IMG/VR virus record: IMGVR_UViG_3300011443_000001
Strand: one strand, 5' to 3'
DNA: 64,000 bases
DNA from: a virus
Position numbers and translations under genes: made by a program. Under the pieces are notes generated by a model that ran no database searches, was not told the DNA's origin, and saw only the letters and a program-made list of their open reading frames with translations. Below, piece after piece: positions 74 to 63,709 of this stretch. The number at the start of each line of letters is the position of its first letter. Positions within the stretch are counted from its first letter, which is position 1.

Positions 74-841
74 ATGAAGAACCTAGTCGTGGGGTATGCC
101 AGCCGGCCGGACGTGAACAACCGCGGAACAGAATATCTGTCTCGCTTCGGAACGTTCATGCCGCTGCATCCACACTTTTTCAATATGAGCGACAACCAAA
201 GCTACTACAAACCAGGGACGGACTTGAAGTTTACTCTTCTCTCCGCCGAGGACGAAACCGCATTGTTTACCAAGGCCCGCGAAAGTGGCGACCGGGAAGC
301 GCGCGAGTTTCTAATCACCAACCATCTGCTTTTCGCGGCGACCTACGCGCGGAAAATCGTGAAGGGCAAGCTGCCGGATAACGAAGTCGTGAGCGCGGCG
401 AACTTCGGGCTGATGAAGGCGTTCGAAGCGTTTGACCACACGCGCGGCAAGCGGTTCTCGGCGTATGCCAAGCCGTATATCCGGTCCGAAATCGCCACGC
501 TCTGGCGTTCGAAGGACATCGTGGACTACCACGGCAATTTTCCGGACGCCCCGGACGACAACGTGGCGCTGCTGGATGAGGACGCCGGCGTGGTGCAGCC
601 CGATGTGGAGGGCGACAGCCGGGAGATGGTTTTGCGATGTCTGGAGTCCGCCAGAAGCGTGCTGAACGCCAAGGAAGCAAAGGTCCTCCGCATGTTCTAC
701 GAGGACAACCTGAACTTCCGGGAAATCGGGGACACGCTCGACATCACGCGCGAGCGAATTCGGCAGCTTCACAACAGCGCGTTGAATAAGTTGCGTCGCG
801 CCTTTGTGCGCGCTGGCGTGGACGCCCAGGGGGAGGTATGA
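74..841 (+). CDS. Phage-encoded sigma-70-family RNA polymerase sigma factor
   Basis: Region 2 (SAANFGLMKAFEAFDHTRGKRFSAYAKPYIR) and region 4.2 HTH (NFREIGDTLDITRERIRQL) recognisable; region 3 short. Confidence 0.9.
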   Translation: MKNLVVGYASRPDVNNRGTEYLSRFGTFMPLHPHFFNMSDNQSYYKPGTDLKFTLLSAEDETALFTKARESGDREAREFLITNHLLFAATYARKIVKGKLPDNEVVSAANFGLMKAFEAFDHTRGKRFSAYAKPYIRSEIATLWRSKDIVDYHGNFPDAPDDNVALLDEDAGVVQPDVEGDSREMVLRCLESARSVLNAKEAKVLRMFYEDNLNFREIGDTLDITRERIRQLHNSALNKLRRAFVRAGVDAQGEV

Positions 842-1047
842 ATTGCCCCGTCTGCAAGGCGCCCGACGTGGAAGAGTGCGCCAATGAGGTCGATATCGGC
901 GTGGGCGTCCAGCGCTTCGTGTGGGGTTACCTCTGCTCGAAGTGTGGCGAAATTCCCGTGTGCCCGGACTGCGGTTGCTGTGGCAACGAACCGGGTGACC
1001 ACTTCGCGTGGTGCCGGGACGTGAAATCGCTGAGGGGGAGAGAATGA
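838..1047 (+). CDS. Small Cys-rich (Zn-finger-like) hypothetical protein
   Basis: CPVC, CSKC, CPDC motifs; ATGA-type overlap with sigma gene. Confidence 0.6.
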   Translation: MNCPVCKAPDVEECANEVDIGVGVQRFVWGYLCSKCGEIPVCPDCGCCGNEPGDHFAWCRDVKSLRGRE

Positions 1048-1562
1048 ACATCCTGGCCTTGGACCTAGGCACCAAGACCGGCTGGGCTAGCCGTTGGGCT
1101 GGCAGGCTCAACGCGGGCACTTGGAACTTCGAACAAAAGAAAGGCCCCTGCTGCGCCGTGGACCCGCGGCTAATTTGCTTCCGCCACCGGCTGGAAGAAA
1201 GCGGGGACACCTTCGACTTGCTGGCATACGAGGACGTGCAGTTCATGCGCGGGCGGGCGCAGGCTTTTCTGTGGTCCGGGTTCCGAACGGTCCTCTGGCT
1301 TTTCGCGCACGACCACAAAATCCCCATTATCTGTTGCCCAGTGAAAACGCTGAAGAAGTATGCGACTGGCAACGGCAACTCGGACAAGGACGCAATGGCC
1401 CTGGCCTATTATGAAAAGGTGCAGGTCGGTGGCCTTGTAACCTCAGTCGAGAACTTCGCGAATCCGGGGTCCGCGCTGGACGACAACGCAATCGACGCGT
1501 GGCATCTCCTGCACTGGGCTGAATCACAGCCATTGACAAATCCGAAAAATTCCACACCTTAA
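1044..1562 (+). CDS. RuvC-like Holliday junction resolvase / RNase H-fold nuclease
   Basis: MNILALDLGTKTGW start, AYEDV, LKKYATGNGNSDKDAM, DDNAIDA acidic motifs. Confidence 0.8.
   Translation: MNILALDLGTKTGWASRWAGRLNAGTWNFEQKKGPCCAVDPRLICFRHRLEESGDTFDLLAYEDVQFMRGRAQAFLWSGFRTVLWLFAHDHKIPIICCPVKTLKKYATGNGNSDKDAMALAYYEKVQVGGLVTSVENFANPGSALDDNAIDAWHLLHWAESQPLTNPKNSTP
1533..1558 (+). promoter_or_regulatory. Short-spacer motif TTGACA-N14-CACACC
   Basis: Copy of genome-wide motif, 10 nt before ATG 1569. Confidence 0.55.
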
Positions 1563-1568
1563 CTTGGA

Positions 1569-2138
1569 ATGAACCAACAGTATCCTATGCTTGTTCCGAA
1601 CCGGGAGTCCGTAAACTCGGAGCAAATTTCTACTCTCCTGCACGTCATCAACGCCTTCCAAGCGTATCTGCTGGCGCCTCACCGGGAGTTTGACCCGAAT
1701 AACGCGCACCCGGAGCTGGACGGCGGGGCGCTGGCCGCGGCGACCGTGACCTTCGGCAACGCCTGCAAAAAGCTGGACGAGATACTTAACGACAACGGCC
1801 GTTGGGGGCTGGACAAGGCGAACGACCTTTATGGGTCACTCGTCAAGACCCAGGAGGCCCATCAAGCGCTGCTCGGCGCGCAGAAGAAGGTCGCGGAGGC
1901 CGCGCTTCTGCCGCACAGTCAGCTCAAGCCGACAATTTTCCAGCACGGGGGAATTTTCCTCGCCATCTACGGCGACCCGTCTATCCCCGCCGGCCACATC
2001 GTGGGTCGCGGGTTCACGCCGGAGGCGGCGCTTAACGACTTTGACCTTGCTTTCAAACGACTGGCGAACGACCAATACCAAATTGCGGTCGAGCCGGGCG
2101 ACGACACCAACCCAAAGAACAACAAGAAGACCAAATGA
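1569..2138 (+). CDS. Hypothetical protein
   Basis: 189-aa ORF in operon, preceded by promoter-like motif at 1533. Confidence 0.7.
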   Translation: MNQQYPMLVPNRESVNSEQISTLLHVINAFQAYLLAPHREFDPNNAHPELDGGALAAATVTFGNACKKLDEILNDNGRWGLDKANDLYGSLVKTQEAHQALLGAQKKVAEAALLPHSQLKPTIFQHGGIFLAIYGDPSIPAGHIVGRGFTPEAALNDFDLAFKRLANDQYQIAVEPGDDTNPKNNKKTK

Positions 2139-9878: not shown

Positions 9879-10520
9879 TTACACCACGGGCTTAGAAATC
9901 GCATTGAGCACCCGGCCACGCCCAGGTGCAGGACCCGAGGTCGGGGAACCCGGCATCAAGTTACTGACGCGCGAGCCTAGGAGCCTTTTCTGCGTGCCGG
10001 CGGACGGCGGGGGACCAGAAGACACGGGAGCGGCTGCGGCTTGTCCTGGGGCAGCCAGGGCAGCCGGCGCCCCGTCTGGCGCGGCCGTCGCGTCCGGGGT
10101 TGTTCCGCCCCGGCGGGCAGCTTCGAACGACTGCACGAGTTGCTCGAAGGGGACGCCCATTTGCTCGAGCTGCCCGGCTTTGTCCGCATCGACAACCTCT
10201 TGGGGCTTAACAATTAACCCGTTAAAAAGCACGAAATTCCCCGGTATAGATTGGGATTCAAACGCGGCGAAACCGACCTTTTTCAAGGCGTTCGCGTTTT
10301 GGCTAAGAGTCTTGACTTCAGGCAGTTCGGAATCCATCGGACCGTAGGTGACCGGCGGGGAGCCGTTCATCAAGGCCGCAACCGCGGGAATCTTGGCCAC
10401 CGCCTCCGGCAAAACCGGCTCGCGCGCGGGAGTTTGCGACTCTTCGGCGGGCATTACTTCGCCGGCTTCGGCGACCGCCGGCTCGGCAACCGGCTGGATA
10501 TCTTCAGGCATCACGGGCAT
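9879..10520 (-). CDS. Hypothetical (putative virion) protein
   Basis: 213-aa ORF in late operon. Confidence 0.65.
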   Translation of the reverse strand: MPVMPEDIQPVAEPAVAEAGEVMPAEESQTPAREPVLPEAVAKIPAVAALMNGSPPVTYGPMDSELPEVKTLSQNANALKKVGFAAFESQSIPGNFVLFNGLIVKPQEVVDADKAGQLEQMGVPFEQLVQSFEAARRGGTTPDATAAPDGAPAALAAPGQAAAAPVSSGPPPSAGTQKRLLGSRVSNLMPGSPTSGPAPGRGRVLNAISKPVV

Positions 10521-10523
10521 ATT

Positions 10524-10682
10524 CTAAGAAGTGGGGGGTTTGGCCAGCTTGTCAACCGACTTGTCGCGGTCCGGCACGATTTGGTCCTCGTGCGCCGCCG
10601 TGTGCAGCATCTCAACCAGAAATTGCATCATTTCCGGCGAAAAGTCCTTTTCGATTTCCTCGCGCTTAGGTTCGGTTTTCAT
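10524..10682 (-). CDS. Small hypothetical protein (52 aa, not in ORF track)
   Basis: Hand-translated MKTEPKREEIEKDFSPEMMQFLVEMLH...; fills the gap exactly. Confidence 0.6.
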   Translation of the reverse strand: MKTEPKREEIEKDFSPEMMQFLVEMLHTAAHEDQIVPDRDKSVDKLAKPPTS

Positions 10683-25754: not shown

Positions 25755-25776
25755 AGTGTTGATTTACAGCCGTTTG

Positions 25777-25780
<4 letters not shown>
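25755..25780 (-). promoter_or_regulatory. Short-spacer motif TTGACA-N14-AACACT-TCTT
   Basis: Upstream of tail operon. Confidence 0.7.
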
Positions 25781-31668: not shown

Positions 31669-31698
31669 GATGTGATTTGGTTAAGGTTTGAATCCAGT

Positions 31699-31728: not shown

Positions 31729-31742
31729 CCTACAGACCATCC

Positions 31743-33023: not shown

Positions 33024-33186
33024 GGTATTTTTCCTTGGTTGTGTCTGAGGAATTTTCCCCAGACGGGTTAACGATGTCACGCAGTAGGGCGTAACTGCCT
33101 CTCGCTCCAGAGCCACCGAAGCGTCTTAGGCTCGTTCCCGTTCGACCAAGGCGGGCAGATTGCTTTTAAGGTCTGTGCAGGGAAGA

Positions 33187-33212
33187 AGTGTGTGAAAATC
33201 CTAAATTGTCAA
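33187..33212 (-). promoter_or_regulatory. Short-spacer motif TTGACA-N14-CACACT-TCTT
   Basis: Upstream of capsid gene. Confidence 0.7.
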
Positions 33213-33701: not shown

Positions 33702-33727
33702 AGTGTGACCTATTTCGCCAATGTCAA
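33702..33727 (-). promoter_or_regulatory. Short-spacer motif TTGACA-N14-CACACT-GGGAA
   Basis: Upstream of endonuclease VII gene. Confidence 0.7.
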
Positions 33728-39073: not shown

Positions 39074-41233
39074 TTATAAGGTCGGTGCGGGTGCCGTTTC
39101 GGGCGGAGGGGCTTCTGGCGCCGGCGGCGCACCTTCAATCGGTGCTCCGGTTTCGTCAAGCGGTCCGGGGGGCGCTCCCGCGTCGAGTTCCGCCTGTCGT
39201 TGTTCGGCCTTCGCTTGCTGCTCGGCTGCTTCCGCAAGTTTCGGCAACTGCGCGGCAAGTTTAGCAATGATATCGCTGAACGGCGCCATCTCATCTTTGG
39301 ACACGCCGACCTCAAGGCCAGCCTGCTCGTGCATCTTCGCGTGCTGCAAAATTGCCATCAACGTTTGCAGCGCATTTGGGTCCTGAACCGCCTGCTGCGC
39401 GGTAGACTCCAGTGCCGGCATCAAAACATTGAGATGGATGATGTGATTATCGCGAGGCGACACCGGAACATCCGCGCTCTGCGGAATAATAATCGAAGCC
39501 AGCTCCATCATCTGGGCACGCGTCTGCTCGGCCTCTTCCGTCGGGTCGTTGTCCGGCAACAGCACCGCATCCGCGAATTCCTCGTCCACGAGCGCAGTAA
39601 GTTTGCGCCGCTCAATTTCCTTCGCGTTGTAAAGGGGGTTCCCCCGGGCTTCGGTCGCGATGATAACGATTTGCTGCCGCTTAATCTCGGTGTAATCCTT
39701 CACCGTTTCCGCCGAGGGGGTGTTGGCAAGCTGGTCCAACTCTTCCCTCGTCATAATTTTCAGGAGACGCTCCTGCATCGCCTTCGCATCATCCTCGCTA
39801 GTGTTCGGGTCACACATGCGCTTCTGCATGGTCGTCACCGCCGCCGAAAACTGCGTCAGGAATCGCGAAATGATGTTGTCCTTGGTTTCTTCCTCACGCG
39901 ACGCGAGAAAATCCACCGCAGCTTTGGTCACACGCTCACCCTCCAGGGCCTTGGGGGTTGTGGCACCCGCCATCTGGTCCAGGAGGTTCGTCAAAAACTG
40001 GTCTAGCTGCACAAAGGGCTCCACCGCGGCGTCCAGCTTTCGCTCGAGCACGTTGTAGCCTTGCGCAATAAGAATCGCATTGCCGACGACGGACATTCGG
40101 AAGCGCTTGAGCACTTTTTCGTCCGCCTGGATGATAACTTTGCCGGAAAGATTGAGTCGGTCCACCACCTCGTTGCGCGAACGGTCGATAATGCCCGCAA
40201 TAGAGTAAAGCTCGCGACCAATTCCCTTCGAACCGTGAAGCGTGCCGTTGCCTTGCTGAAAACTGAAGAACGCGACGGCGTCCGCCATCGATTCATACTG
40301 GTCTTCGCTCGTGAACAGCTCCGTGAACGTCTTTTCTTCGAAAATGTAGTGAGAAACCTTGCCGTCAATCTCGGTGGCGAGCAAATGCCACACCACGACG
40401 ACCCGCGCGCCGCTTTCGTGCGACATCCCGAGGTTAGACTCACGAATCAGGTCCTCGTAAACGCGTTCCCAGGCTGAATACTGCGAGCGTCGGTCCTGCG
40501 GCATCGATGCGTTAATCATCATGACCGTATTTGCGAGATTCCAGCCGCGAGTTTTCGCCGACTCCTTATCCGAAATCAATTCGAACAGCTCATGAAGCAG
40601 AAAAACCTCCTTGAGCGCGACCACCTGGGCTTTTCCGGGAATCGGTTTCGTGCCCGTGGGCACGGCCATGAAGTCTTGACGGAAAAATTTCGGAAACCAA
40701 CTGAATTCATCGAGCCACGCGACCGACGCGAAGCCGAAAAGTGCGTTCTCCTGCGCCAAGTCGCCGAGAAAATCCCGCCAGCCGGCGCGGTTGCGCGCGA
40801 GCGCGGTCACTTCCCGCCGGAACGCCTCCGTTTTCACCGCGGCGCCCTCGATATCCTCCGGCAACGCCGAGTTGGTGATGTATTTCACGCCCTCGACGGC
40901 CTGAACAAACCGCGGAGCGACCTTCTCCACCAACATCGCGAGGACCTTGGTCGAAAAATTCGCCTTCCAACCCAGTCCCTCGTTCTCGAGCGAGTCGGTC
41001 CGGTGCGGTTTCTCCGAATTAACCTTCGCTTGGATGCGCGCGTTCTTGATGTTCCGCTCTCGCGACGCCGCCAGCAACACCAGGACGATGTTTTTGGCCT
41101 GATTCGCGTCCTTGATGGCCCGGTTCCCTGGCTTCAGGTTCTTGGACAGGGCGGGCGGAGAGACGGCCCCTTGGAAATCTTCCTGAGGTCCGCCGACCAT
41201 GATTGGTTCAGACCGTGATGGCGTAAGTGGCAT
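39074..41233 (-). CDS. Portal protein (probable)
   Basis: 719 aa helical protein downstream of TerL with Pro/Ala/Glu-rich tail as in podophage portals. Confidence 0.7.
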   Translation of the reverse strand: MPLTPSRSEPIMVGGPQEDFQGAVSPPALSKNLKPGNRAIKDANQAKNIVLVLLAASRERNIKNARIQAKVNSEKPHRTDSLENEGLGWKANFSTKVLAMLVEKVAPRFVQAVEGVKYITNSALPEDIEGAAVKTEAFRREVTALARNRAGWRDFLGDLAQENALFGFASVAWLDEFSWFPKFFRQDFMAVPTGTKPIPGKAQVVALKEVFLLHELFELISDKESAKTRGWNLANTVMMINASMPQDRRSQYSAWERVYEDLIRESNLGMSHESGARVVVVWHLLATEIDGKVSHYIFEEKTFTELFTSEDQYESMADAVAFFSFQQGNGTLHGSKGIGRELYSIAGIIDRSRNEVVDRLNLSGKVIIQADEKVLKRFRMSVVGNAILIAQGYNVLERKLDAAVEPFVQLDQFLTNLLDQMAGATTPKALEGERVTKAAVDFLASREEETKDNIISRFLTQFSAAVTTMQKRMCDPNTSEDDAKAMQERLLKIMTREELDQLANTPSAETVKDYTEIKRQQIVIIATEARGNPLYNAKEIERRKLTALVDEEFADAVLLPDNDPTEEAEQTRAQMMELASIIIPQSADVPVSPRDNHIIHLNVLMPALESTAQQAVQDPNALQTLMAILQHAKMHEQAGLEVGVSKDEMAPFSDIIAKLAAQLPKLAEAAEQQAKAEQRQAELDAGAPPGPLDETGAPIEGAPPAPEAPPPETAPAPTL

Positions 41234-41242: not shown

Positions 41243-41268
41243 AGTGCAGATTTTCAGACGTTTGTCAA
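41243..41268 (-). promoter_or_regulatory. Short-spacer motif TTGACA-N14-TGCACT
   Basis: Upstream of portal gene. Confidence 0.7.
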
Positions 41269-41784: not shown

Positions 41785-43716
41785 TCACATATCGTTGTCG
41801 TCCAGCGCCGTGTCCAGGTCCTCGAATCGGTTCGTCCGGTCGCAGCCGATGTCGCGCGCCTGGGGGTCCCACTCCGACTGGTGCTCGATGGGCTCCACGT
41901 CGGTGTCGCCGGCCATGCTGGGCGTAAACCCGAACCCGCGGCGCGCGGCCTGCAAAAGCAGGGTGAACGCGTCCGCGCTGTTCGGAGACTTGCCGGCGTG
42001 CCGGGACTTGTATTCTTTTTTGGACTCGACGTGTGACTTTTTTCCAATCATTCGGAACAGCCGGTCCGTAAGCTCCGGATACAGCTCGGACGTATCCAGT
42101 CCGAATGCGCAGAACATATACTTGAACTCGAGCCACCGTCGCAGAGCGAACCACAACTCGGAATTCACCCGGTCATAAAGTTCCTTGGCCGTGTCTTCAT
42201 CTTCGATAAACACCCGCGCGTCCGTCGCGCCCTCGTAAAAGTTCACGCCGACGACCGACGGCGACCACCGAGCCCGCAGGTAATCGTAAACTCCCTGACC
42301 GTTGCCCGTCCGGTCCAGCGCGAGGTGCTCGGGTCGAATCTTCATTGCGCGGCAGAGCCGCATGACTTCGTCTCCGACGACGAACGTGTCGCCATTCGGT
42401 ATGATGAAAATTTTCTCCGCGAGCAAAATGTGTTTCGGGGACTTATGCCCGTTGCGGTCCATAAAATAAATCGTTTCGCCCTCCGGATGCGCAAGGCTCG
42501 GACCCATACGCAGCCCGGTCGCCCGACCGAACAGCCCCTTGCACATCATGCACGCGTCACCGCCCTCGAGCGCAAGGTCCGCGCCCGCACACGGCTCCGG
42601 CACGTCATACCAAATCACCTCGCACTTCAGATTAACCGTTAGCCCTTGTGGAATCACCGCGAGCGCGACACCGATGGGCGGAAAACATCCGCGCACCATC
42701 GTCCAGTATCCCGGCGAGTCGAGCCCGCCAGCGTTGGCGATGATTTGCTGCATGCCCTCGTAGGTCTGCATGCCGGGATAAATCTCCCGCTTCTCTTTGA
42801 TGTTTTCGGACTGCATCGCGTCCAGGCGGACAATCCACCATCCGCGGACGGACATCCAATCGAAGTGCAGGTCAGGGTCGAAACTTCCCCAGCCGAACTT
42901 CGGCTCGCAGCGAACGCCTACGTCGTTGTTCCGGTCGTCCGGGTTGAACGCGCCGTAAACTTTCAGCCCGCCTCGATTCGAGGCGTTGGACAGCAAGTTG
43001 TCAATATCGTGCCACAGCCCTTTTGGCAGGTTGGAAATTTCGTCCACGAACACGAACAGCCGGCTCGTCTCGCCAAATTCCGGATGCGGAGTCTTGCGCC
43101 GAAAACGCGCGACACCTTGCAGCCGGCCCGCCGCCTTTTTCCCTTGCGGGATTACGACGCCCGCGATAGAGCCGCGCCGCTTGCGCAGGTCAAGACCGAT
43201 AAACAGCTTTCCGATTTCCCCCGGCAGCGGGATAGCCGAGTTTCGGTGCAGTTCGACGAGCTGCGAAAACAGGTTGGCTTCGAGATGGTCTTCACTCGGC
43301 CCTAGGACTCGGACCGACGTGTATTCGGGGTCGCGCAGCCACTCCAGAAAGAACCGAATCGCCATGCTGAAGGACTTCGACTGCTTGCCGGCGCCCATCA
43401 GCAATCCGAAGTCGTGTTCGTCAACGGCCGACCATACGCGCTTGGTGTTGTTCGGCCGCGGGTCAAACTGGTTCGGGGTCCACAACAACTGGGCGGCTTC
43501 TTCCATCGCGCCATGGTTCATGGCCCAGTGCAGGAGAATGTTTAGAAGCTCAAACGCCTTGGCCTTGGTTTCGACCGACTGCTTGGCCATCGCCGGCGTG
43601 GTCTGTGCTGCCCAGGCGCGAACGAGCCGCGCGGCGTCGTAAATCTCGCCGGCGTGAATGAGTTTCGCAGTCTCGCGAAGGAGTCCCTTAACGGGGTGTG
43701 ACTCTGGTAAAGCCAT
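41785..43716 (-). CDS. terL: Terminase large subunit
   Basis: Walker A-like MGAGKQSKS, Walker B FVFVDE, RNase H-like GADLALEGGD, ALDRTGNG, SPNSADA. Confidence 0.85.
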   Translation of the reverse strand: MALPESHPVKGLLRETAKLIHAGEIYDAARLVRAWAAQTTPAMAKQSVETKAKAFELLNILLHWAMNHGAMEEAAQLLWTPNQFDPRPNNTKRVWSAVDEHDFGLLMGAGKQSKSFSMAIRFFLEWLRDPEYTSVRVLGPSEDHLEANLFSQLVELHRNSAIPLPGEIGKLFIGLDLRKRRGSIAGVVIPQGKKAAGRLQGVARFRRKTPHPEFGETSRLFVFVDEISNLPKGLWHDIDNLLSNASNRGGLKVYGAFNPDDRNNDVGVRCEPKFGWGSFDPDLHFDWMSVRGWWIVRLDAMQSENIKEKREIYPGMQTYEGMQQIIANAGGLDSPGYWTMVRGCFPPIGVALAVIPQGLTVNLKCEVIWYDVPEPCAGADLALEGGDACMMCKGLFGRATGLRMGPSLAHPEGETIYFMDRNGHKSPKHILLAEKIFIIPNGDTFVVGDEVMRLCRAMKIRPEHLALDRTGNGQGVYDYLRARWSPSVVGVNFYEGATDARVFIEDEDTAKELYDRVNSELWFALRRWLEFKYMFCAFGLDTSELYPELTDRLFRMIGKKSHVESKKEYKSRHAGKSPNSADAFTLLLQAARRGFGFTPSMAGDTDVEPIEHQSEWDPQARDIGCDRTNRFEDLDTALDDNDM

Positions 43717-43879: not shown

Positions 43880-44262
43880 AAAAAAATGCAGAGTGCCGGG
43901 CAAACCGGCATCACCGTTCTGAGTGAACGTGTCTTTGGTTTAGACGAACCCTGCACAAAGTAAGCGGCGTGTTGTATTGAGCCGTTGTCGCCGACTATAC
44001 GCGTGACGGGGTGAGCATTCCCTGCTCGCTGCCACGATTTCCCCGCCGACAGCCCGGAAGCTAAAACGCCGCTTGCCGAGGTCCACAGTGTGATTACACC
44101 TTCGGCCAAAACGTTCCGTGCTGTCGAAAATGGTAACGGGAGCGGGCGGTAGCTAACCGGATGTCCCGCGCCCCGACCGAGAGAGCTGCGCACTTCGCTC
44201 TCGGCTTTTTCCCAGGTCGCCTTTAGGGCGTAGACTGGACTATTCCCGAGCACACGGCCCGG
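43880..44262 (-). ncRNA. Candidate structured non-coding RNA(s) downstream of tRNA
   Basis: No credible ORF; many complementary stems incl. 12/13-bp helix, 9-bp long-range helix, multi-branch junction ending in U7. Confidence 0.55.
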
Positions 44263-44267
44263 AAAAT

Positions 44268-44342
44268 TGGTTGCAGGAGACGGAGTTGAACCGCCGACCT
44301 TCTGGTTATGAGCCAGACGAGCTACCACTGCTCCATCCTGCA
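44268..44342 (-). tRNA. tRNA-Met (CAT), initiator-like, CCA encoded
   Basis: TGCAGGATGGAGCAGTGGTAGCTCGTCTGGCTCATAACCAGAAGGTCGGCGGTTCAACTCCGTCTCCTGCAACCA folds into a full cloverleaf. Confidence 0.95.
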
Positions 44343-44355
44343 TTGCCATGCGCTG

Positions 44356-44631
44356 TTAGGTGACCGTGACGGTCACAGTGCCCTGCCCGGGCTCGGTCGG
44401 AAGAGTCGGACCGTGCATCACCGGACCTTCCGGACCCAAGCCGACGATATTCTCAGCCCGAACGCGCCAGTCATAGACCTGCGGAACGGGGTTAAAAATG
44501 TCGAGGGACGGAACCGCCGTATTGGCCTTGAAAACAAATGGTCCCCCATTAACGCTTTCATAGACCTTGTAGTTGTTGACCTGTTCACCCGCCGGATTTG
44601 CGGGCCACGCCAAATGGATAGTAGTTGCCAT
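44356..44631 (-). CDS. Fibronectin type III / Ig-like protein
   Basis: LAW.....YKVY...YDWRVRAENIVGLGP. Confidence 0.75.
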   Translation of the reverse strand: MATTIHLAWPANPAGEQVNNYKVYESVNGGPFVFKANTAVPSLDIFNPVPQVYDWRVRAENIVGLGPEGPVMHGPTLPTEPGQGTVTVTVT

Positions 44632-44636: not shown

Positions 44637-45344
44637 CTAAGAAGTGTGCGAACTTTCCGATTTGTCAATGGTCGTATGATGAAGTCTGTAAACCGTTGAT
44701 GCGTGCCAGAAACGCTCGCCAGACGGGTTAAGAATTCCGCCCTCGCGCAACCCGTTGGCAACTTGCAAATATGTCCAGCCCTCGCGCCGGCGCGCGTGGA
44801 TGTAGTTCAAAACGTGCCGCTCATCCGCCTGGACCGCCGGGTCCGGATGCAGCCCGTAGGGCCGGCGCCCGCCGCACGGCCGTCCGGTCCTGGCCTTTGT
44901 GCGCCGGCGCCCGTCTTGCAGCTTCTTAACGATTACGGCCTTCTCCCATTGCGCGATGACGCCGAGCATCTGCCGCAGCATGACGCGCGACGGGTCGCCG
45001 TCGGCCACTGTTAGTTCCTGCCCGGAGTCCGCCGCGAAAACCTTGACGCCGCGCTCCGCGCACCGCACAAAGAAAATTTCCTGGGCCATCAGGTCACGCG
45101 CGACGCGGTCGGACCGTTCCACAACGATGGCTTCAACATTAAAGGCCGGAGCCAGCTCGAGCATCTCAAGCAGCATGGTCCGGTCTTCAACGTTGACGCC
45201 CCCGGACTGGTTTTCCGAGAAGGTGCGACAGATGCTCATGTCGTGTTGTTCGGCGAACTGTTTGACCGTATCGCGCTGGCGGTCGAGCCCGCACTTGTCA
45301 ACCTGTTCTCGGGTGCTGACGCGCAGATACGAAAAAACTCTCAT
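44637..45344 (-). CDS. Serine recombinase (resolvase/invertase family)
   Basis: YLRVSTREQ catalytic Ser motif, ERSDRVAR, C-terminal HTH-like region. Confidence 0.9.
   Translation of the reverse strand: MRVFSYLRVSTREQVDKCGLDRQRDTVKQFAEQHDMSICRTFSENQSGGVNVEDRTMLLEMLELAPAFNVEAIVVERSDRVARDLMAQEIFFVRCAERGVKVFAADSGQELTVADGDPSRVMLRQMLGVIAQWEKAVIVKKLQDGRRRTKARTGRPCGGRRPYGLHPDPAVQADERHVLNYIHARRREGWTYLQVANGLREGGILNPSGERFWHASTVYRLHHTTIDKSESSHTS
44643..44668 (-). promoter_or_regulatory. Short-spacer motif TTGACA-N14-CACACT-TCTT
   Basis: Upstream of FN3-tRNA-ncRNA-TerL unit. Confidence 0.7.
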
Positions 45345-45841
45345 GGCTGTATCCTTTGGCCGGTGTCCGGGTCGTAGCCGATATACGCGGAAAAGTCCCC
45401 CGCGGTCATTCTGTTCCACGCGAACCAAATGTCCTTGAGCTGTTGCCGGCTGTGACAGGCCCGTGTCAGCAGGTGCGTAGCCGGGAACGAATACAGCCGC
45501 TCAAAGTCGGTCGTCGGACGACTTCCAAAAATGTTCGCGGGCGCCCACTTGTTCGATTGCAGCTCGGCGAACGCGCAGCACCAGCCCTCGCCCCAGTTCG
45601 GAAACCGATGTATCAGCGGCGCGCGGAACGCCACCGAATGGAAAACCTCGTGCCACAGCCCGTCAATGGGCTGGTCCCATCCCAGTGTTATCCGGGCGCA
45701 CGTATTCTCTCGCCAGGGCGGATACCACAGTCCGCCCGCGCCGTTTTCCAAGCGCCAAATAATTTCGTCCAACTCGACAAACTCCCAGGACGGCCCGACC
45801 CAGGTCTTCGCTTCGGCGATGATGTGGTGAAACGGACTCAT
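45341..45841 (-). CDS. Putative zinc metallopeptidase (HExxH...E)
   Basis: WHEVFH...WGEGW. Confidence 0.55.
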   Translation of the reverse strand: MSPFHHIIAEAKTWVGPSWEFVELDEIIWRLENGAGGLWYPPWRENTCARITLGWDQPIDGLWHEVFHSVAFRAPLIHRFPNWGEGWCCAFAELQSNKWAPANIFGSRPTTDFERLYSFPATHLLTRACHSRQQLKDIWFAWNRMTAGDFSAYIGYDPDTGQRIQP

Positions 45842-47235: not shown

Positions 47236-47262
47236 AGTGCCACTACGTGGGTCATTTGTCAA
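47236..47262 (-). promoter_or_regulatory. Motif variant TTGACA-N15-GGCACT-GG
   Basis: Upstream of 47221 gene run. Confidence 0.55.
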
Positions 47263-49419: not shown

Positions 49420-49595
49420 CAAAGACCCTTGCGCTTCAAATCCTTGTTCTCGGTCCACCAAGCTTCACGCTTCTGCTTGCGCAACAGTTTCTTCGCCGCG
49501 GTGTTAAGCTTCTGCGCAGCATGAGGCGCAGCCTTGAACAATTCCTTTTCGATGTCTTTCGGTTCCACGTCTAAGAGGTGCGCAGCAAAAGCCAT
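49419..49595 (-). CDS. Small basic protein (58 aa, not in ORF track)
   Basis: Hand-translated MAFAAHLLDVEPKDIEKELF...; coupled to next gene. Confidence 0.55.
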   Translation of the reverse strand: MAFAAHLLDVEPKDIEKELFKAAPHAAQKLNTAAKKLLRKQKREAWWTENKDLKRKGL

Positions 49596-49711
49596 ATGTC
49601 AACCTGGGGACCCCGAAAAAGATAGCATAGGGGTGGGCGATGACCTCGGACCAAGTCACGGGGACCTAGACATGGTGTATACTATAAAGAGGTTCTGGGC
49701 TTTCCAAGTCC

Positions 49712-49747
49712 TTATCTATTATATATTTATAAATAAATTCAATATAA
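49712..49747. other. AT-rich patch at the strand switch
   Basis: 34 of 36 bases A/T in a GC-rich genome. Confidence 0.5.
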
Positions 49748-49822
49748 GGTTTTGATAGGTGAAGTGTCAGAAAAACACGTGGCCCAGAAGCTCTTGGTAG
49801 TCTACACCAAGTCCAGACCGGC

Positions 49823-49848
49823 TTGACAAACTCGAAAAACCCCACACT
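49823..49848 (+). promoter_or_regulatory. Short-spacer motif TTGACA-N14-CACACT-GGGAA
   Basis: Upstream of 49860. Confidence 0.7.
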
Positions 49849-50147: not shown

Positions 50148-50980
50148 GCCGTCGCAATCGGGACAGGAGTCGGGAACGCCGGCGTGGTATAAATCGGACC
50201 ATCCTGAATGGTCAGATACGGCGTCTACATTACAAATGGCGACAGTGGGATATGTGCGTCCGAACCGGCGGACCGGTGGAGACGGAGTTTGAATTGTTCA
50301 ACGAGCTGAAGTCCACGCTCATTTCTCAGGTTGCAGACTTCAAGGACCGGGACGCGTGGCTCGCGAAAATCGACTCGGCATGTGGACCTGCGCCGGAGCG
50401 CAAGCCACGAGCACCTCGGGCCGTTGTCGCGCGGACCGATGTCATTAGTCACGAGGCACGCATTCCGTTGTGGTCCGGTCCGAATGGTGATGCACCGCTG
50501 AAGCGCGTGGTTGGTGTGGCGTGGTGCCCCAAGGTAGGACGTTGGGCTATTCGCATTCGCACGCGCTTGGGTGAGTATATCGACACGCACACCGACGGCA
50601 TCTCGTTGTTCGACTTGGCGTATCTGACCGACCATTTCAAGTGCATCATGATGGTGGGAGCGTATGACCCGCTTAGCCTGGAGATAGATAAATCTGTGGG
50701 CGGCGGCTTTTTGTCTCCGCGTCCCGGCATGCGTAAATCTGCCTGGAACGACTACGAAAACGCCCAAGAGAAACTCGAATGCGGGGGCCTTAGTATCGAA
50801 CACGACCATGAAATGTTTGGGCACCTGCATACCAATCTGGCCGACTGGTTTTCCCGAGTAATTCGGAATGAGGGCTATAAGAGCCGCGGCTTTATCACCA
50901 CGGTTCATGCAATGCCGCGTCACTCGTCCATCGTCAAGCAAGTGGACAAAATGATGGGGCCTTCACTTAAGCCCTCTTGA
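50144..50980 (+). CDS. Hypothetical protein
   Basis: 278-aa coupled ORF. Confidence 0.65.
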   Translation: MSRRNRDRSRERRRGINRTILNGQIRRLHYKWRQWDMCVRTGGPVETEFELFNELKSTLISQVADFKDRDAWLAKIDSACGPAPERKPRAPRAVVARTDVISHEARIPLWSGPNGDAPLKRVVGVAWCPKVGRWAIRIRTRLGEYIDTHTDGISLFDLAYLTDHFKCIMMVGAYDPLSLEIDKSVGGGFLSPRPGMRKSAWNDYENAQEKLECGGLSIEHDHEMFGHLHTNLADWFSRVIRNEGYKSRGFITTVHAMPRHSSIVKQVDKMMGPSLKPS

Positions 50981-51002
50981 CATTTGGACAAAATCCTACA
51001 CT
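50977..51002 (+). promoter_or_regulatory. Short-spacer motif TTGACA-N14-TACACT-GGGAA
   Basis: Upstream of 51016. Confidence 0.7.
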
Positions 51003-55003: not shown

Positions 55004-55209
55004 AAACAAACGAATCACTACCTACCAAACGCGGAAAAATTAACGGCTACAGCCACGCCAAGGCTGACGCCAAGGCGGACCGTAAGCGGCTCGATGCCCA
55101 GGCGCGCGACCAAGCGCATGCGGACCTGACGCCGGCGCAAAAGCTGGCCAAGTGTCGTGCGCGCCGCGGCTGCTCCGACCGTGAGGTGAAGCGCTTAACT
55201 GGGGCTTGA
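55000..55209 (+). CDS. Small basic protein
   Basis: Coupled ORF. Confidence 0.6.
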   Translation: MKTNESLPTKRGKINGYSHAKADAKADRKRLDAQARDQAHADLTPAQKLAKCRARRGCSDREVKRLTGA

Positions 55210-55242
55210 CAGCATGCCCGACCGGTGCGATATTACGCCATG
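55206..55242 (+). promoter_or_regulatory. Leaderless-type promoter TTGACA-N17-GATATT-acgcc-ATG
   Basis: One of three near-identical copies. Confidence 0.7.
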
Positions 55243-55362
55243 AAGAAACTGCTTCGTGAGTTGAAAATGTCGCCCGGTTGGTCGGTCGCCTTCGCCTTCC
55301 TCGGCCTGGGCATCGTGCTGAAGTTCGTGGTGTTGGTGATGGTCATCCTGGGAGTAAACTGA
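55240..55362 (+). CDS. Small membrane protein (40 aa, not in ORF track)
   Basis: ATG is part of repeated promoter motif; one TM helix. Confidence 0.55.
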   Translation: MKKLLRELKMSPGWSVAFAFLGLGIVLKFVVLVMVILGVN

Positions 55363-55363
55363 T

Positions 55364-55600
55364 ATGAACTATTCGATTGTTTGGAAAATACGGGAGGGTG
55401 GATTTGTCACCTTCCGCCGGGAGCTGGAGGACATGAAATCCCTCGAACACGCGCTGGAGGTTTTTCGGCGTGAGGAACCCGACGCGTATGTTGTTCGTGC
55501 GTATGTCCACGAACCCATTGACCCGGCTCTGCTCGCCGGGCTGTGGCAGCGCCTCGACCAGAAGGCTGTTGCGGATGGCTGGCGTTCCACCGGAGACTAG
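55364..55600 (+). CDS. Hypothetical protein
   Basis: 78-aa ORF. Confidence 0.55.
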   Translation: MNYSIVWKIREGGFVTFRRELEDMKSLEHALEVFRREEPDAYVVRAYVHEPIDPALLAGLWQRLDQKAVADGWRSTGD

Positions 55601-55604
55601 CACC

Positions 55605-55952
55605 ATGAACAAGTTCACCCACAAAATCGAGTTTACTTTTGGCATCGGCCTTGACAAAGACTTCCGGCGCATCCCGCGCGAGGTTGCCGTGGTGCAGTTG
55701 GAGTGCATCCGCACGGCAGCGCTGGACCTGTTTGGCGGATGCACCCAAATTACAGGCACCGGCGCGTGGCGCGATGACGAATTCATGGCTAACGGCCGAA
55801 CCTGGGTGGAGGACAATTGCACGCTGGTCGTCCTGACGGACCTCGAGTGGAACCGCTCCGCGGTGGCCATACTCGCGGAGCGCATCAAGGTTTTGCTTGA
55901 CCAAGCGGCTGTGCTGGTCACCTACCCGCATATCACGGGGGAAATGCTGTGA
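55605..55952 (+). CDS. DUF3574 / SAM-lyase-like small ferredoxin-fold protein
   Basis: G.T...TGAW......VE.N.TLVV...A..IK..LDQAAVLV pattern. Confidence 0.45.
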   Translation: MNKFTHKIEFTFGIGLDKDFRRIPREVAVVQLECIRTAALDLFGGCTQITGTGAWRDDEFMANGRTWVEDNCTLVVLTDLEWNRSAVAILAERIKVLLDQAAVLVTYPHITGEML

Positions 55953-56311
55953 GGCTGGACTTTCACCGGGACATCTACCTGCCGGCGGAGCTGGTCGCCC
56001 ATGTCCGCGCCGTGAATTATTCGCGGCTGGTTTACACCCGCCACGCTCTGGGCGCCGCCCTGGAGGACGGCCTGCGGCATACGGACCTGCCGCTGTCGCT
56101 GTGTTTGGACGACTGGACGCTGGTCCACGTCGAGACGTGGCACGGCCGGCCTACGGGAATCCTGGTGCGCCGCCCAGTGAATTCCAACCCGCGCCTTCAC
56201 TTGGTCCTAGCAATAAGCGTGCCAGATTGCCGCGTTAAGACCGTTTGGATTAACCGCGCGGACGACAATCACCGCACGCTGGACCGGGCGAAATATGTGT
56301 CCGCCCCTTGA
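55949..56311 (+). CDS. Conserved phage protein, possible BECR-fold ribonuclease
   Basis: YTRHA...LVLAI...VKTVWIN..DNH.TLD..KY. Confidence 0.5.
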   Translation: MRLDFHRDIYLPAELVAHVRAVNYSRLVYTRHALGAALEDGLRHTDLPLSLCLDDWTLVHVETWHGRPTGILVRRPVNSNPRLHLVLAISVPDCRVKTVWINRADDNHRTLDRAKYVSAP

Positions 56312-56344
56312 CGCGGGCCGCGACCTGCGCCATATTACGCCATG
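56308..56344 (+). promoter_or_regulatory. Leaderless-type promoter TTGACG-N17-CATATT-acgcc-ATG
   Basis: Second copy. Confidence 0.7.
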
Positions 56345-56491
56345 AATAACATACCTGATTTTGTTTTGATAGCTGCGTGGTTTCTCGGTCTCGGTGTATG
56401 CGCCGCGGCCAAGCTTTTTTTCTGGTATTGGGTTATCAAGCTTTGTATTAACGACGTTGCGGATGGGGTGGCGGACCGCTTGAAAAAGTAA
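56342..56491 (+). CDS. Small membrane protein (49 aa, not in ORF track)
   Basis: ATG within promoter motif; hydrophobic helix. Confidence 0.55.
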   Translation: MNNIPDFVLIAAWFLGLGVCAAAKLFFWYWVIKLCINDVADGVADRLKK

Positions 56492-56495
56492 TGAC

Positions 56496-56532
56496 TTGAC
56501 ATCGGCCACGACCTGCACCACATTACGCCATG
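56496..56532 (+). promoter_or_regulatory. Leaderless-type promoter TTGACA-N17-CACATT-acgcc-ATG
   Basis: Third copy, ATG is helicase start. Confidence 0.7.
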
Positions 56533-58542
56533 AGCAACGAGACAACGACGGAGATTAAGATTGAAACCCTGCTGCCCTGGGGTGCGCCGAAGCGCGTGCG
56601 CCTGCAAGACGGCACCGAGCGCATCCTTCGGACCTGCTTTTCCACGCCGTCATCCTTCTGGGACGCCTGGAAGCAAAATAAGCCCGCGCTCCAGCAAGCG
56701 GGCATCTCGCCGAAGCGCCAGCCGGACGGCGCCTGGATAGTGAATTGGTGGGCCGCGGTTGACCCGGTCGCCGCCAAGGCGGAGCAGGCCAAGCGTGCCG
56801 TTGTCGCCGAGGCCAGCCGCGCGACCGATGCGGCCATCGACCTGCCCCGCCCGGCCGGGCTGAACTACCTGCCGTATCAGAAAGCCGGCGTGGCCTACGG
56901 GCTGGACTGCTGGGCGCACAAGCGCGGGGTTCTCATTGGCGACGAAATGGGTTTAGGAAAAACAATTCAGGCCATCGGGCTCATCAATTGCACGCCGTCA
57001 ATCAAGTCTGTCATCATCGTTTGCCCGAACACGCTCAAGCTGAACTGGGCACGCGAGCTGAAGAAATGGCTCGTCCGGCCGATGTCGGTTGAGGTTCAGT
57101 ATTCGAACAAACCCTTTTCCCGCGCGGACATCGTCATCGTGAATTATGACGTGGTCCACAAGTTTCTGACGGACCTTTCGAACCGTGACTGGGACCTGCG
57201 CATTTGTGATGAGAGCCAATACATCAAGAACCCCAAGGCACGCCGCACGAAGTCCACGCTGGCCATCCGCGCTGCCCGCAAGGCTGCGCTGACGGGAACG
57301 CCCATCGAGAACCGGCCCATCGAGTTGTGGCCCGTCCTGAACGACCTGGACCCCAGCGCGTGGCCCAAGGGCGGGTTTTTCCAGTATGCTCGCCGCTATT
57401 GCGCCGCCAAGCAAAACGGTTTCGGCTGGGACTTTTCCGGTCACAGCAACGAGGCGGAGTTGCAGCATCGGCTGCGGTCGTCCATCATGATACGCCGCTT
57501 GAAAAAGGACGTGTTGAAGGAACTGCCTGCGAAGCAACGCCAAGTCATCGAGTTGGACACCGCCGGTTGCAAAGAGCTGCTCGAGCTGGAGGAGTCGATG
57601 GTGTCCGAACGCGAGGCCGCGCTTGTTGAGTTGCGCGCACGCGTCGAGCTGGCCCGCGCTGGTGAGTCGCGCGAAGACTACGCGGAGGCAGTCCACGCGC
57701 TGCGCAGCGGGCAAGGCGCCGCGTTTGAGGACATGGCTGAGTTGCGGCACAAGGTCGCCGAGGCCAAGCTTCCGCAATGCCTCGCGTTCATCGAGGACGC
57801 GATGGAATCCGGCAAGGTGATAGTGTTCGCGCATCACCTGGACATTGTCGCGGGCGTCGTCGCGAAGTTTCCCCAGGCGGCGGTCATCACGGGCAACACG
57901 CCCGCGCCGAAGCGCATGGAACAGGTTGACCGCTTCCAGAATGACCCCGAGTGCAACATTTTCGTGGGCAACCTTGCCGCGGCTGAAGGGCTGACCCTGA
58001 CCGCCGGCTCGCACGTTATTTTCGTCGAGATGCAATGGGTGCCCGGCAAGCATGCGCAGATGGAAGACCGCGCGCACCGCATTGGGCAGAAGGACAGCGT
58101 GCTGTGCAGCTACCTCGTGCTCGAGGGCTCGCTTGACGCGCATATGTCGCGCACCATCGTGGAAAAGCTGAATGTCATTGACGCGTGCCTGGACAAAATC
58201 ACGGACTGGACCGAAGCCGACGTGGAGGAAGTCGAGCCGGTGACCAAGGTCCGCCTGACCTTCGAGCGCGTCGCTGCCGAAGCGAAGCTGGTGTCTGACC
58301 GCTGCGTGGAGCTGGTCCACTTCGGGATGAAGATGCTTGCCGGCGTGTGTGACGGAGCGTGCAAGCTGGATGACGTGGGCTTTTCCGCGGTCGATGTTCA
58401 AATCGGGCACGCGCTCGCGCACCGCGCGACCATTACCCAGAAACAGGCCGCGCTGGGCTGGCGAATACTTTGTAAATATCACCGCCAGCTCGGCTCCGAA
58501 TTCATCGCAGAGCTGAAGGCAGCGGCAGCAATAAAACAATGA
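56530..58542 (+). CDS. SNF2-family (HARP/SMARCAL1-like) helicase/ATPase
   Basis: DEMGLGKT, CDESQYIK, LTGTPIENRP, QMEDRAHRIGQ. Confidence 0.95.
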   Translation: MSNETTTEIKIETLLPWGAPKRVRLQDGTERILRTCFSTPSSFWDAWKQNKPALQQAGISPKRQPDGAWIVNWWAAVDPVAAKAEQAKRAVVAEASRATDAAIDLPRPAGLNYLPYQKAGVAYGLDCWAHKRGVLIGDEMGLGKTIQAIGLINCTPSIKSVIIVCPNTLKLNWARELKKWLVRPMSVEVQYSNKPFSRADIVIVNYDVVHKFLTDLSNRDWDLRICDESQYIKNPKARRTKSTLAIRAARKAALTGTPIENRPIELWPVLNDLDPSAWPKGGFFQYARRYCAAKQNGFGWDFSGHSNEAELQHRLRSSIMIRRLKKDVLKELPAKQRQVIELDTAGCKELLELEESMVSEREAALVELRARVELARAGESREDYAEAVHALRSGQGAAFEDMAELRHKVAEAKLPQCLAFIEDAMESGKVIVFAHHLDIVAGVVAKFPQAAVITGNTPAPKRMEQVDRFQNDPECNIFVGNLAAAEGLTLTAGSHVIFVEMQWVPGKHAQMEDRAHRIGQKDSVLCSYLVLEGSLDAHMSRTIVEKLNVIDACLDKITDWTEADVEEVEPVTKVRLTFERVAAEAKLVSDRCVELVHFGMKMLAGVCDGACKLDDVGFSAVDVQIGHALAHRATITQKQAALGWRILCKYHRQLGSEFIAELKAAAAIKQ

Positions 58543-58742: not shown

Positions 58743-58894
58743 AGACACTATCCTATTTGCTATTTCTGGTTTGTTTTATGTGCCTGGGCATTTCCTTTTG
58801 GCCTGCGGTGGCGCTGGTCTGGTTCCTCCGGCTCGAGGCAAAAACAGGGGTTGACAATTTGCCAAAACGCCACACTGGGAATAGTGATGAATAA
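58739..58894 (+). CDS. Small membrane protein (51 aa, not in ORF track)
   Basis: Hand-translated; ATGA overlap. Confidence 0.4.
   Translation: MKTLSYLLFLVCFMCLGISFWPAVALVWFLRLEAKTGVDNLPKRHTGNSDE
58851..58876 (+). promoter_or_regulatory. Short-spacer motif TTGACA-N14-CACACT-GGGAA
   Basis: Upstream of 58887. Confidence 0.7.
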
Positions 58895-62724: not shown

Positions 62725-62930
62725 AGAAGCCTGAGGTTAAATTCACTCAAATCAAGCAACTTCCTGGGGTTGCGGATACGTATTCGTATCAGGTCCAGCT
62801 ACGAGTCGCCAATCAAACTTTCAACGTGGGCGGTGAACACAGCACGCGCCGCGAAGCCATGTGGTTCCGTCGGCAGCTCGTGACGGCGTTGCACAGTCTT
62901 GTTCAGAGTTTTGCTGTGGAGGACTACTGA
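62721..62930 (+). CDS. Hypothetical protein
   Basis: ATG 62721, coupled. Confidence 0.55.
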   Translation: MKKPEVKFTQIKQLPGVADTYSYQVQLRVANQTFNVGGEHSTRREAMWFRRQLVTALHSLVQSFAVEDY

Positions 62931-62933
62931 CGT

Positions 62934-63344
62934 ATGTTTAAGCGAATCAAAATCTGGCTCAGTAACAAGTTCAAATCCCGCGCGCAGCGTGACCGGGAGC
63001 GCGGGTATTATGACCGCCTGCCGTCCGTAAACGGGCTGGACCTGGATGAAATCAACGCGCGGATGGCCGGGCACAAGGCGTTTAAGGTCGTCACTTCGCG
63101 GCCCACGTCCGTCTGGGAGCGCTTCAGAACGTTTCGCCGGCGCTATGGCAAGTGGCCGAATCCGAAGGAACTGCTCGCTATTTTGGTTCCGTCGGAGTGG
63201 CTCGCGGAAAAGTTGTGGCCCAAGTGGGACCCTACAATGCCCAACGCGCTGGTGGCGCCCCGGGCCGGATACTACGACTGCGACACGGGACGCGTTTACG
63301 ACTGCAACCACAAGCTTATTCGCACCCGGCATCCCGGTGTTTAA
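62934..63344 (+). CDS. Hypothetical protein
   Basis: 136-aa ORF. Confidence 0.55.
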   Translation: MFKRIKIWLSNKFKSRAQRDRERGYYDRLPSVNGLDLDEINARMAGHKAFKVVTSRPTSVWERFRTFRRRYGKWPNPKELLAILVPSEWLAEKLWPKWDPTMPNALVAPRAGYYDCDTGRVYDCNHKLIRTRHPGV

Positions 63345-63687
63345 CCCCCATCGCAACGACCGTGAGCTGTGGTCATACCTCGTGGCCACCGCTTTTCATG
63401 TCCCGCCCTCGCCCCATCGCAATATCATTTTGACGGACCTGCGGGGGCTGCCGAAGACGGCCGCGCACTTTGGCGACTGTAGCGAGAACGGCCTAATCCG
63501 GCTCCGGTTGCGTCGGGCCAGCGGCCGGCGGCTCGAGCCTTATAACATCCTGGACACGCTGGCACACGAGCTGGCGCACCTGTCCTTCTGGGAACACACC
63601 GACCACTGGTTCCGGGAGCACCTGCGCATCCAGAGCCACTTCTTAAATCGTGGCATTTACGCGGATGTGTGTGGTTTGTGCCGTTGA
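63337..63687 (+). CDS. WLM/SprT-like zinc metallopeptidase
   Basis: G.C..NG.I.LRLR...ILDTLAHELAHL....H...F. Confidence 0.7.
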   Translation: MFNPHRNDRELWSYLVATAFHVPPSPHRNIILTDLRGLPKTAAHFGDCSENGLIRLRLRRASGRRLEPYNILDTLAHELAHLSFWEHTDHWFREHLRIQSHFLNRGIYADVCGLCR

Positions 63688-63709
63688 CAATTCGGACTTT
63701 TCCGCCACT
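63684..63709 (+). promoter_or_regulatory. Short-spacer motif TTGACA-N14-GCCACT-TCTT
   Basis: Upstream of 63724. Confidence 0.65.

Follow-up and report, generated by a model that had tools for sequence, protein, structure and literature searches.

The subject of this report is a sigma factor and its putative promoters, encoded on a 64,000-nt stretch of viral DNA (IMG/VR record IMGVR_UViG_3300011443_000001; the whole stretch is called the window below). The gene at 74..841 (+) encodes a phage sigma-70-family factor of 255 residues, P0001, with Pfam Sigma70_r2 and Sigma70_r4 domains. Its product probably redirects the host core RNA polymerase to a class of promoters of the form TTGACA-N16-CACT, in which a host-like -35 hexamer is combined with a short, unusual -10 element. 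A preliminary description of the window had proposed a cognate sigma-promoter pair with a retained -35 box and a rewired -10 box, CACACT, set at an abnormally short spacer of 14 nt. The pairing, the kept -35 box and the rewired -10 box stand, based on covariation between sigma and promoters, on the existence of a separate canonical promoter class and on the presence of one sigma gene per genome. The compressed geometry does not, considering where mismatches to CACACT fall, that its second A is the invariant one, and how sigma-32 promoters are built. The other reading offered in that description, N16 followed by CACTnn, is the better one.

Ten exact matches to TTGACA-N16-CACT occur in the window, where about 0.1 would be expected (about 0.08 for a pattern of equal information content). 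The enrichment over shuffled sequence that had been suggested as a check was indeed found: 15 sites with at most one mismatch, compared to 2.58 expected, and none of 100 shuffles reached 15. All eleven promoter-like sites of the preliminary description are present, at the positions and on the strands that it gave, including one at 47262(-) with an additional spacer base, and two more sites of the same class, at 10555(-) and 49602(-), bring the total to 13. Each of the 13 has the same orientation as the gene run downstream, as had been claimed for the original set. TTGACA placed 14 or 15 nt directly before CACT has no match in the window; the correct register is N16. In four complete relatives the motif occurs in 14, 15, 7 and 8 exact copies, while a reversed control pattern occurs in none of them, and at orthologous positions the two boxes are conserved and the spacer sequence drifts.

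The sites fall into two classes, both with TTGACA-N16, according to the bases that follow CACT: class A reads CACT-TCTTA and class B reads CACT-GGGAAG (GGTAAG in relatives). Distances below, denoted d, run from TTGACA to the start codon, in nucleotides. On the minus strand, the first promoter of the leftward gene arm is a class A site at 49577..49602 (CACC-TCTTAG), with orthologous sites in the relatives G002 (16028) and G003 (10833) and in contig L031 of the G006 phage (945). It is followed by a class B-like site at 47236..47262, with N17 before CACT-GGTAAAGG and an ATG at 47221; the orthologous sites in G002, G004 and G005 have N16. The class A site at 44643..44668 (ATG 44631) heads a unit that includes a 91-aa gene, a tRNA-Met gene and a TerL-like gene. 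Another, at 41243..41268, precedes the portal-like gene (ATG 41233, d=35), and an orthologous promoter is present in relatives as distant as G007-G013. Next comes a class B site at 33702..33727 (CACT-GGGAAG), before the GTG at 33692 of an endonuclease VII gene, and then a class A site at 33187..33212 before the capsid-like gene. The class A site at 25755..25780 (ATG 25745, d=35) heads the tail-module run and has orthologous sites in G002, G003, G005 and G004 (47832), and that at 10530..10555 (CACT-TCTTA; ATG 10520, d=35) precedes the gene at 9879-10520, with orthologous sites in G002, G003, G005 and L012.

On the plus strand, three class B sites stand at 49823..49848 (the first promoter of the rightward arm; ATG 49860), at 50977..51002 (ATG 51016) and at 58851..58876 (GTG 58884 or ATG 58887), the last with orthologous sites at 27109 in G002 and 71701 in G003. 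A class A site at 63684..63709 has a downstream sequence, TCTTATGnAAGAACGTGAAA, that is conserved in relatives, and a class A-like site at 1533..1558 (TTGACA-N16-CACC-TTAAC) has an ATG 10 nt on, at 1569, with orthologous sites before the same gene in G002 (39988) and G003 (57947). The class B spacers of relatives also hold a palindrome, TTTTCnGAAAA with flanks GAC...GTC, that overlaps the -35 box and the spacer (G002 17027 and 27109; G003 63877, 67620 and 71701; G004 21393; G005 2254); weaker versions occur in the window at 50977 and 58851. Its form suggests an operator bound by a dimeric regulator, and this element could be the basis of the split between class B and class A.

How long is the spacer of these promoters? 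Every TTGACA in five genomes was inspected for at least four of six matches to CACACT at N14, which yielded 58 sites compared to 3.9 in shuffles. The spacing is rigid, with 58 sites at this distance and 2 at +1. Mismatches to CACACT at hexamer positions 1 through 6 number 28, 29, 1, 0, 1 and 6, respectively. Since the mismatches are concentrated at positions 1 and 2, with hardly any at positions 3-6, the recognised element appears to be CACT at 16 bp, and the CA that precedes it is only about 50% conserved. Ten more complete relatives, with sigmas 31-46% identical, have nACy-T as the corresponding element, in which only the A and the C are invariant. Such an A, in the second position of an element that begins 16 bp after the -35 box, fits the flipped-out -11 adenine of a promoter in normal register. 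The 14-nt figure arose because the half-conserved CA was counted as part of the element, and we conclude from these alignments that the short spacer is most simply read as a counting artefact and the actual spacer as an ordinary 16 bp. The sigma-32 promoter offers a precedent: written as TTGAA-N13/14-CCCCAT, it is equivalent to TTGAAg-N16 followed by C-12 and A-11, with melting at the -12/-11 junction (PMC10216364). The rule of a spacer of about 17 bp in sigma-70-type promoters is thus not overturned. A different candidate, TGG-TAAGAG as an extended -10 element, was rejected, as it needs a 22-bp spacer and would put the transcription start inside genes.

The position of the start codons bears on the same question. 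Class A promoters most often have d=35 and the canonical promoters of the phage, described below as class C, have a fixed d=34, and so the two classes share one geometry. The start codon lies 7-14 nt past CACT, most often 9, the exception being the capsid-like gene with its leader of about 70 nt. With start codons so near, the transcripts would be leaderless, or would carry leaders of a few bases. In the case of the portal-like protein, the N-terminus read from the ATG 9 nt past CACT (41233) is conserved in six orthologues, and the placement of this ATG fits a leaderless or near-leaderless mRNA. The Atlas record of the protein starts 11 codons downstream of this ATG, possibly owing to the lack of a Shine-Dalgarno sequence before it. 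Where mRNAs of this phage family are leaderless, annotated gene starts may be wrong.

P0001 is a sigma-70-family protein by several measures. Both Pfam domains score above their cut-offs (PF04542, 9.5e-10; PF04545, 4.4e-15), and its top fold matches are sigma factors. A region 1.2/sigma2 domain spans residues ~52-148, a disordered acidic linker residues 149-180 and a sigma4 domain residues 182-247; the AlphaFold2 (AF2) model consists of two helical domains joined by the 32-residue disordered linker. Pfam gave no match to the sigma3 domain (PF04539). Among NCBIfam models only TIGR02937 exceeds its cut-off (77.7 bits compared to 42.9, residues 75-243), and the protein scores far below every cut-off of the RpoH, RpoS, FliA and SigB/F/G models. 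RpoH is the best of these specific models, yet its score is 85 against a cut-off of 323 (TIGR02392), and among solved structures the best match in both sequence and fold is sigma-32 (8hkc). In HMMER alignments, region 2.3-2.4 reads FSAYAKPYIRSEIA in P0001, FSTYATWWIRQAIT in Bacillus subtilis SigA and LVSFAVHWIKAEIH in sigma-32; the KPYIRSEIA of P0001 is closest to the VHWIKAEIH of sigma-32. Region 4.2 reads DITRERIRQ, with TRERIRQ identical to primary sigmas. These alignments agree with what the preliminary description had said of the residues, namely that KPYIRSEIAT replaces TWWIRQAITR and that TRERIRQ is intact.

The homologues of P0001 form a phage-only clade. Identity to cellular sigmas does not exceed 31%, and the order polA-primase-sigma-RuvC-like gene is preserved in distant relatives. 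Judging by its sequence, P0001 belongs to a new family of phage sigma factors. Each complete genome examined has one sigma gene, and a T7-type RNA polymerase had no match in any complete genome.

If this sigma reads the CACT-class promoters, changes in the protein should be mirrored in the promoters, and natural variation among the relatives follows that pattern at both boxes. The sigmas of G004 and G005 carry TRARVHQ in region 4.2, equivalent to the changes E585A and R588H in sigma-70 numbering; in sigma-70 itself, E585Q and R588H relax specificity at -33 (PMC2613000). The -35 boxes of CACT-class promoters in these two genomes are divided between TTGACA and TTAACA (15:11), compared to 38:0 in the other genomes (Fisher 1e-5, a statistic that ignores phylogeny), and TTAACA never occurs in their canonical promoters. 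The C at -31 and its partner, the Arg584 equivalent, are invariant. Another variant sigma, P0014, carries exactly E585Q/R588H.

A second correspondence concerns the base before the invariant AC, at -12. Across 15 genomes this base is uniform within a genome, differs between lineages and follows the residue aligned with Glu139. Where the residue is Glu (IRSEIAT), in the clade of the window, the base is C in 34 of 35 sites, and it is mostly C with the Glu of the G006 phage, G007, L011 and L012. With Arg (IRGRIAE, G008) it is G in 8 of 8 sites; with Ala it is A in 5 of 5 sites of G010 (IRGAIAT) and G or A in G012-G016 (LRGAIAG). Sigma-32 shows the same pairing, a Glu at the corresponding residue with C-12. 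Promoter specificity tracks the residues of the phage sigma over the small number of lineages available. The recognition helices of a host primary sigma are invariant (that of the RpoD in the candidate host bin discussed below, for example), and such a sigma would not yield promoter changes specific to phage lineages. The idea that the phage sigma and the CACT-class promoters form a matched pair is supported by these comparisons.

The same genomes also hold promoters of a canonical kind. Class C reads TTGACR-N17 (often with TGn)-GAtATT-5 nt-ATG and numbers 5-7 per relative. In the window, three such promoters, probably leaderless, lie on the plus strand within 1.3 kb (55206-56532): one at 55206..55242 (TTGACA-N17 with TGn, GATATT, 5 nt and ATG, d=34, a leaderless design), one at 56308..56344 (TTGACG-N17-CATATT-ACGCC-ATG) and one at 56496..56532 (TTGACA-N17-CACATT-ACGCC-ATG), directly before the helicase gene. 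The latter two share a duplicated block, GACCTGCnCCAnATTACGCC-ATG, and the TTACGCC-ATG that follows class C promoters is preserved in relatives. Class C precedes small early genes and the helicase gene. G002, G004 and G005 also have a class C promoter before the polA-primase-sigma operon, at a distance of 5.5-6.5 kb upstream of the sigma gene. The presence in one genome of two kinds of promoter with a common -35 box and different -10 boxes argues for two sigma2 specificities. The CACT motif, for its part, is a multi-copy and probably phage-specific element that differs from the canonical class and points in the direction of the middle and late gene runs.

These observations suggest a scheme for the transcription program: with class C placed before the early genes and, in relatives, the sigma operon, control may pass from the host sigma to the phage sigma. 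The host primary sigma would read class C and so transcribe the small early genes, the helicase gene and, in relatives, the polA-primase-sigma operon. The phage sigma would next fire class B, which serves replication and nucleotide-metabolism genes and the endonuclease VII gene, and would also fire class A, which serves the terminase, portal, capsid and tail units. Region 4.2, with its TRERIRQ, would read the host-like -35 hexamer, and the diverged region 2.3-2.4 (KPYIRSEIA) would read the short -10 element as C-12, A-11, C-10 and T-9, with the A as the flipped-out -11 base; T-7 would be dispensable.

Such a scheme amounts to a complete and testable map of a three-class transcription program, with one canonical early class and two sigma-specific classes, in which most units appear designed to give mRNAs with no leader or almost none. 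The natural variation also predicts a residue-base code: at -12, C would go with Glu in region 2.4, G with Arg and A with Ala, and at -33 either G or A would be tolerated by sigmas with the E585A/R588H-equivalent changes. Orthogonal sigma-promoter pairs could result from these predictions. This sigma family is carried by widespread uncultured phages of about 72 kb, whose hosts may be bacteria of the candidate phyla radiation, which is only a lead.

Could a host sigma read the CACT class instead, either an alternative sigma or the primary one with a relaxed -10 requirement, leaving the phage sigma with other targets? We consider this unlikely. The -35 box is indeed the host consensus, but a motif search among upstream regions turned up no other multi-copy, non-canonical motif to serve the phage sigma: the over-represented motifs were only parts of classes A, B and C and a short element, CCTACAGAC, near some start codons. 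The base at -12 and the G/A polymorphism at -33 track phage sigma residues by lineage, and in the one candidate host bin no contig outside the phage carries the motif. CACTnn moreover lacks both T-7 and T-12, and a canonical primary sigma should open such a -10 element poorly. A division of labour in which the host primary-sigma holoenzyme binds TTGACA and a separate phage activator or appropriator recognises CACT and the block downstream, the phage sigma not being the reader, is in our judgement extremely unlikely. It would explain why the conserved block continues past CACT (K27, T29, W30, A31) and would give a role to the operator-like palindrome in the class B spacers of relatives. It would also make the covariation with sigma residues in regions 2.4 and 4.2 a coincidence; family searches gave no candidate protein for the activator, and we know of no system that puts an activator site on the -10 region itself. 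As for the same cognate pair in a truly compressed form, CACACT would be the -10 hexamer, 14 bp from the -35 box, a geometry enabled by the short linker between sigma2 and sigma4. This we regard as very unlikely, and we say the same of the register that it implies, with A-11 as the first A of CACACT and T-7 as its last T. A T does occupy the would-be T-7 in 11 of the 13 window sites and in 52 of the 58 sites across five genomes, and the modelled sigma has no sigma3 domain and a 32-residue disordered linker. The would-be -12 and -11 positions, however, are the two that are only half conserved, while the next four are nearly invariant; the A that is invariant across 15 genomes is the second one; the distance from -35 box to start codon equals that of the canonical class (35 compared to 34); and sigma-32 has the same nominally short spacer with normal geometry. 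Sigma2 and sigma4 occupy fixed sites on the core enzyme, as holoenzyme structures show, and the length of the linker therefore does not set the spacer. To our knowledge, a 14-bp CACACT geometry has not been described for any sigma-70-family factor; if true, a compressed geometry on core RNA polymerase would be new for this family.

Several observations count against a phage sigma reading TTGACA-N16-CACT, the explanation that we prefer. Two of them suit the compressed hexamer better: the GGGA or GGTA of class B directly follows CACACT, like a discriminator motif (the one preferred by sigma region 1.2 resembles GGGA), and a purine stands 7 nt downstream of CACACT in most sites. A host alternative sigma with the same specificity, though unlikely, could read these sites as well. 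The code at -12 has exceptions, in that G011 (Ala) and the L009 phage (Val) use C, and few independent lineages lie behind the covariation, with one clade for TTAACA and one genome each for Arg with G and Ala with A. Distant relatives with a much-altered region 4.2 (RQAISV, REAIRI) still face TTGACA, which shows that the -35 code is loose and is what one might expect of a box read by a host sigma. What distinguishes class A from class B is not explained by sequence. Finally, the only RNA evidence is six short contigs from one sediment RNA library, which could be DNA carry-over and do not suffice to place a transcription start. One of these contigs, 44235-44627, stops 4 nt inside the first open reading frame after the 44668 promoter and does not reach the promoter, a result that is compatible with the model and not decisive.

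A host was sought with a portal profile against 185,579 species genomes. The search found no prophage in these genomes, and its single match was a metagenome bin of 'Candidatus Peribacteraceae' (candidate phyla radiation), which holds three contigs of a related phage (L031-L033; C52, C49 and C6 of G006). In this bin, all five occurrences of TTGACA-N16-CACY lie on the three phage contigs, whose link to the candidate host is by binning only. The canonical TTGACA-N17-TAnnnT is enriched genome-wide (21 compared to 3 for the control), and the RpoD is canonical. The tetranucleotide correlation between the phage contigs and the bin is 0.66-0.80. Together with the freshwater-sediment, groundwater and soil metagenomes in which these phages occur, the bin is a lead to the host, no more.

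The window itself has a GC content of 59%. None of 50,697 phage records matches it at the nucleotide level, and at the protein level phage records gave only remote matches to the sigma and the terminase. Sigmas 68-77% identical to P0001 are encoded on eight IMG/VR contigs. Complete relatives measure 71-74 kb, and two of them have end repeats of 127 bp that resemble the terminal overlap of a circular assembly; on these grounds the window would be about 64 kb of a 72-kb phage genome. Two divergent gene arms begin at 49.6-49.8 kb. The leftward arm runs from 49.6 to 6.7 kb and contains TerL-like, portal-like, capsid-like, collagen-like and tail-fibre-like genes as well as a gene for a giant protein of 2091 aa. 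The rightward arm starts at 49.8 kb, crosses the missing 8 kb and ends at 6.5 kb; it holds small open reading frames, the helicase and nucleotide-metabolism genes and then, by synteny in relatives, polA, primase, sigma and the RuvC-like gene. Between the divergent promoters at 49602(-) and 49823(+) lies a very AT-rich stretch (TTATCTATTATATATTTATAAATAAATTCAATATAAGG) at 49690-49770, a candidate origin, packaging site or regulatory site.

Searches of PHROGs and Pfam left most of the structural and early proteins of the window without a name, and an Rfam search found only the tRNA. On the minus strand lie the serine-recombinase gene (44637-45428, with a resolvase N-terminal domain), upstream of the terminase unit, the tRNA-Met gene (44268-44342), the TerL-like gene (41785-43716) and the portal-like gene (39074-41233). 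The endonuclease VII gene (33201-33692, GTG start; Pfam Endonuclease_7, 2e-22) sits between a glycosylation cluster and the capsid-like gene (31743-33116), directly after its class B promoter. Two strong GC-rich hairpins, at 31425-31470 and 31669-31742 (-), come directly after the capsid-like gene, as expected of terminators or attenuators behind a highly expressed gene. The helicase gene lies at 56530-58542 (+). The short element found in the motif search, CCTACAGAC(C/A), stands immediately before several start codons, for example at 3231(+) and 39065(-), the latter in front of the gene after portal; it also occurs at 31729, next to the candidate capsid terminator, and orthologous places are kept in G002-G005.

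How does this system compare with sigma factors already known? P0001 resembles the extracytoplasmic function (ECF, group 4) sigmas in having two domains, sigma2 and sigma4, joined by a flexible linker, in reaching the cut-off of TIGR02937, the broad ECF-superfamily model, and in facing a short, 4-nt conserved -10 element without T-7. It differs from them in its region 1.2-like helix, in that its best matches are group 1-3 sigmas, and in its promoters, which have TTGACA and CACT rather than a GGAAC-type -35 and a CGT-type -10 box; no match to an anti-sigma partner was found among the genes neighbouring sigma. P0001 does not belong to groups 1-3 either, as it has no sigma3 domain and scores below the cut-offs of their family hidden Markov models.

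Among phage sigmas, the comparison covered SPO1 gp28 and gp33/34, T4 gp55, phiEco32 gp36 and that of phage 7-11 (in part from PMC4331800). As in SPO1, T4 and phiEco32, a sigma-70-family protein is encoded by a lytic phage among early and replication genes, a phage-specific multi-copy motif heads the later units, and early genes have host-type promoters. There is no detectable sequence kinship with the SPO1, T4, phiEco32 or 7-11 sigmas beyond the general sigma-70 family. SPO1 gp28 changes both the -35 and the -10 box, and T4 gp55 and phiEco32 gp36 use no -35 box. The phage of the window, in contrast, keeps the host -35 box and alters only the -10 box, and the position of its promoters suits mRNAs with no leader or almost none.

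The closest parallel to the protein itself is sigma-32 (RpoH; CTTGAA-N13/14-CCCCATNT; 8HKC, PMC10216364), its best match in sequence and fold. Region 2.4 reads xIKAEIH in sigma-32 and xIRSEIA in the phage sigma, and neither protein has the Trp-Trp wedge (H107-W108 in sigma-32, Pro-Tyr in the phage). In both systems a -35 box is followed after 16 bp by C-12 and A-11, and the spacer is nominally short only from counting upstream bases. The differences are that the phage sigma is not an RpoH by TIGR02392, has no sigma3 domain and is phage-encoded; that its region 4.2 is of the primary type (TRERIRQ), with TTGACA rather than TTGAAA at -35; and that its -10 element is CACT, not CCCCATNT, with no conservation of the upstream CC. 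By analogy, then, the function appears to be a familiar strategy, in which later genes are transcribed by the host core enzyme under the direction of a phage sigma, and the promoter logic appears closest to that of sigma-32, with C-12, A-11 and normal geometry, but combined with the -35 box of a primary sigma.

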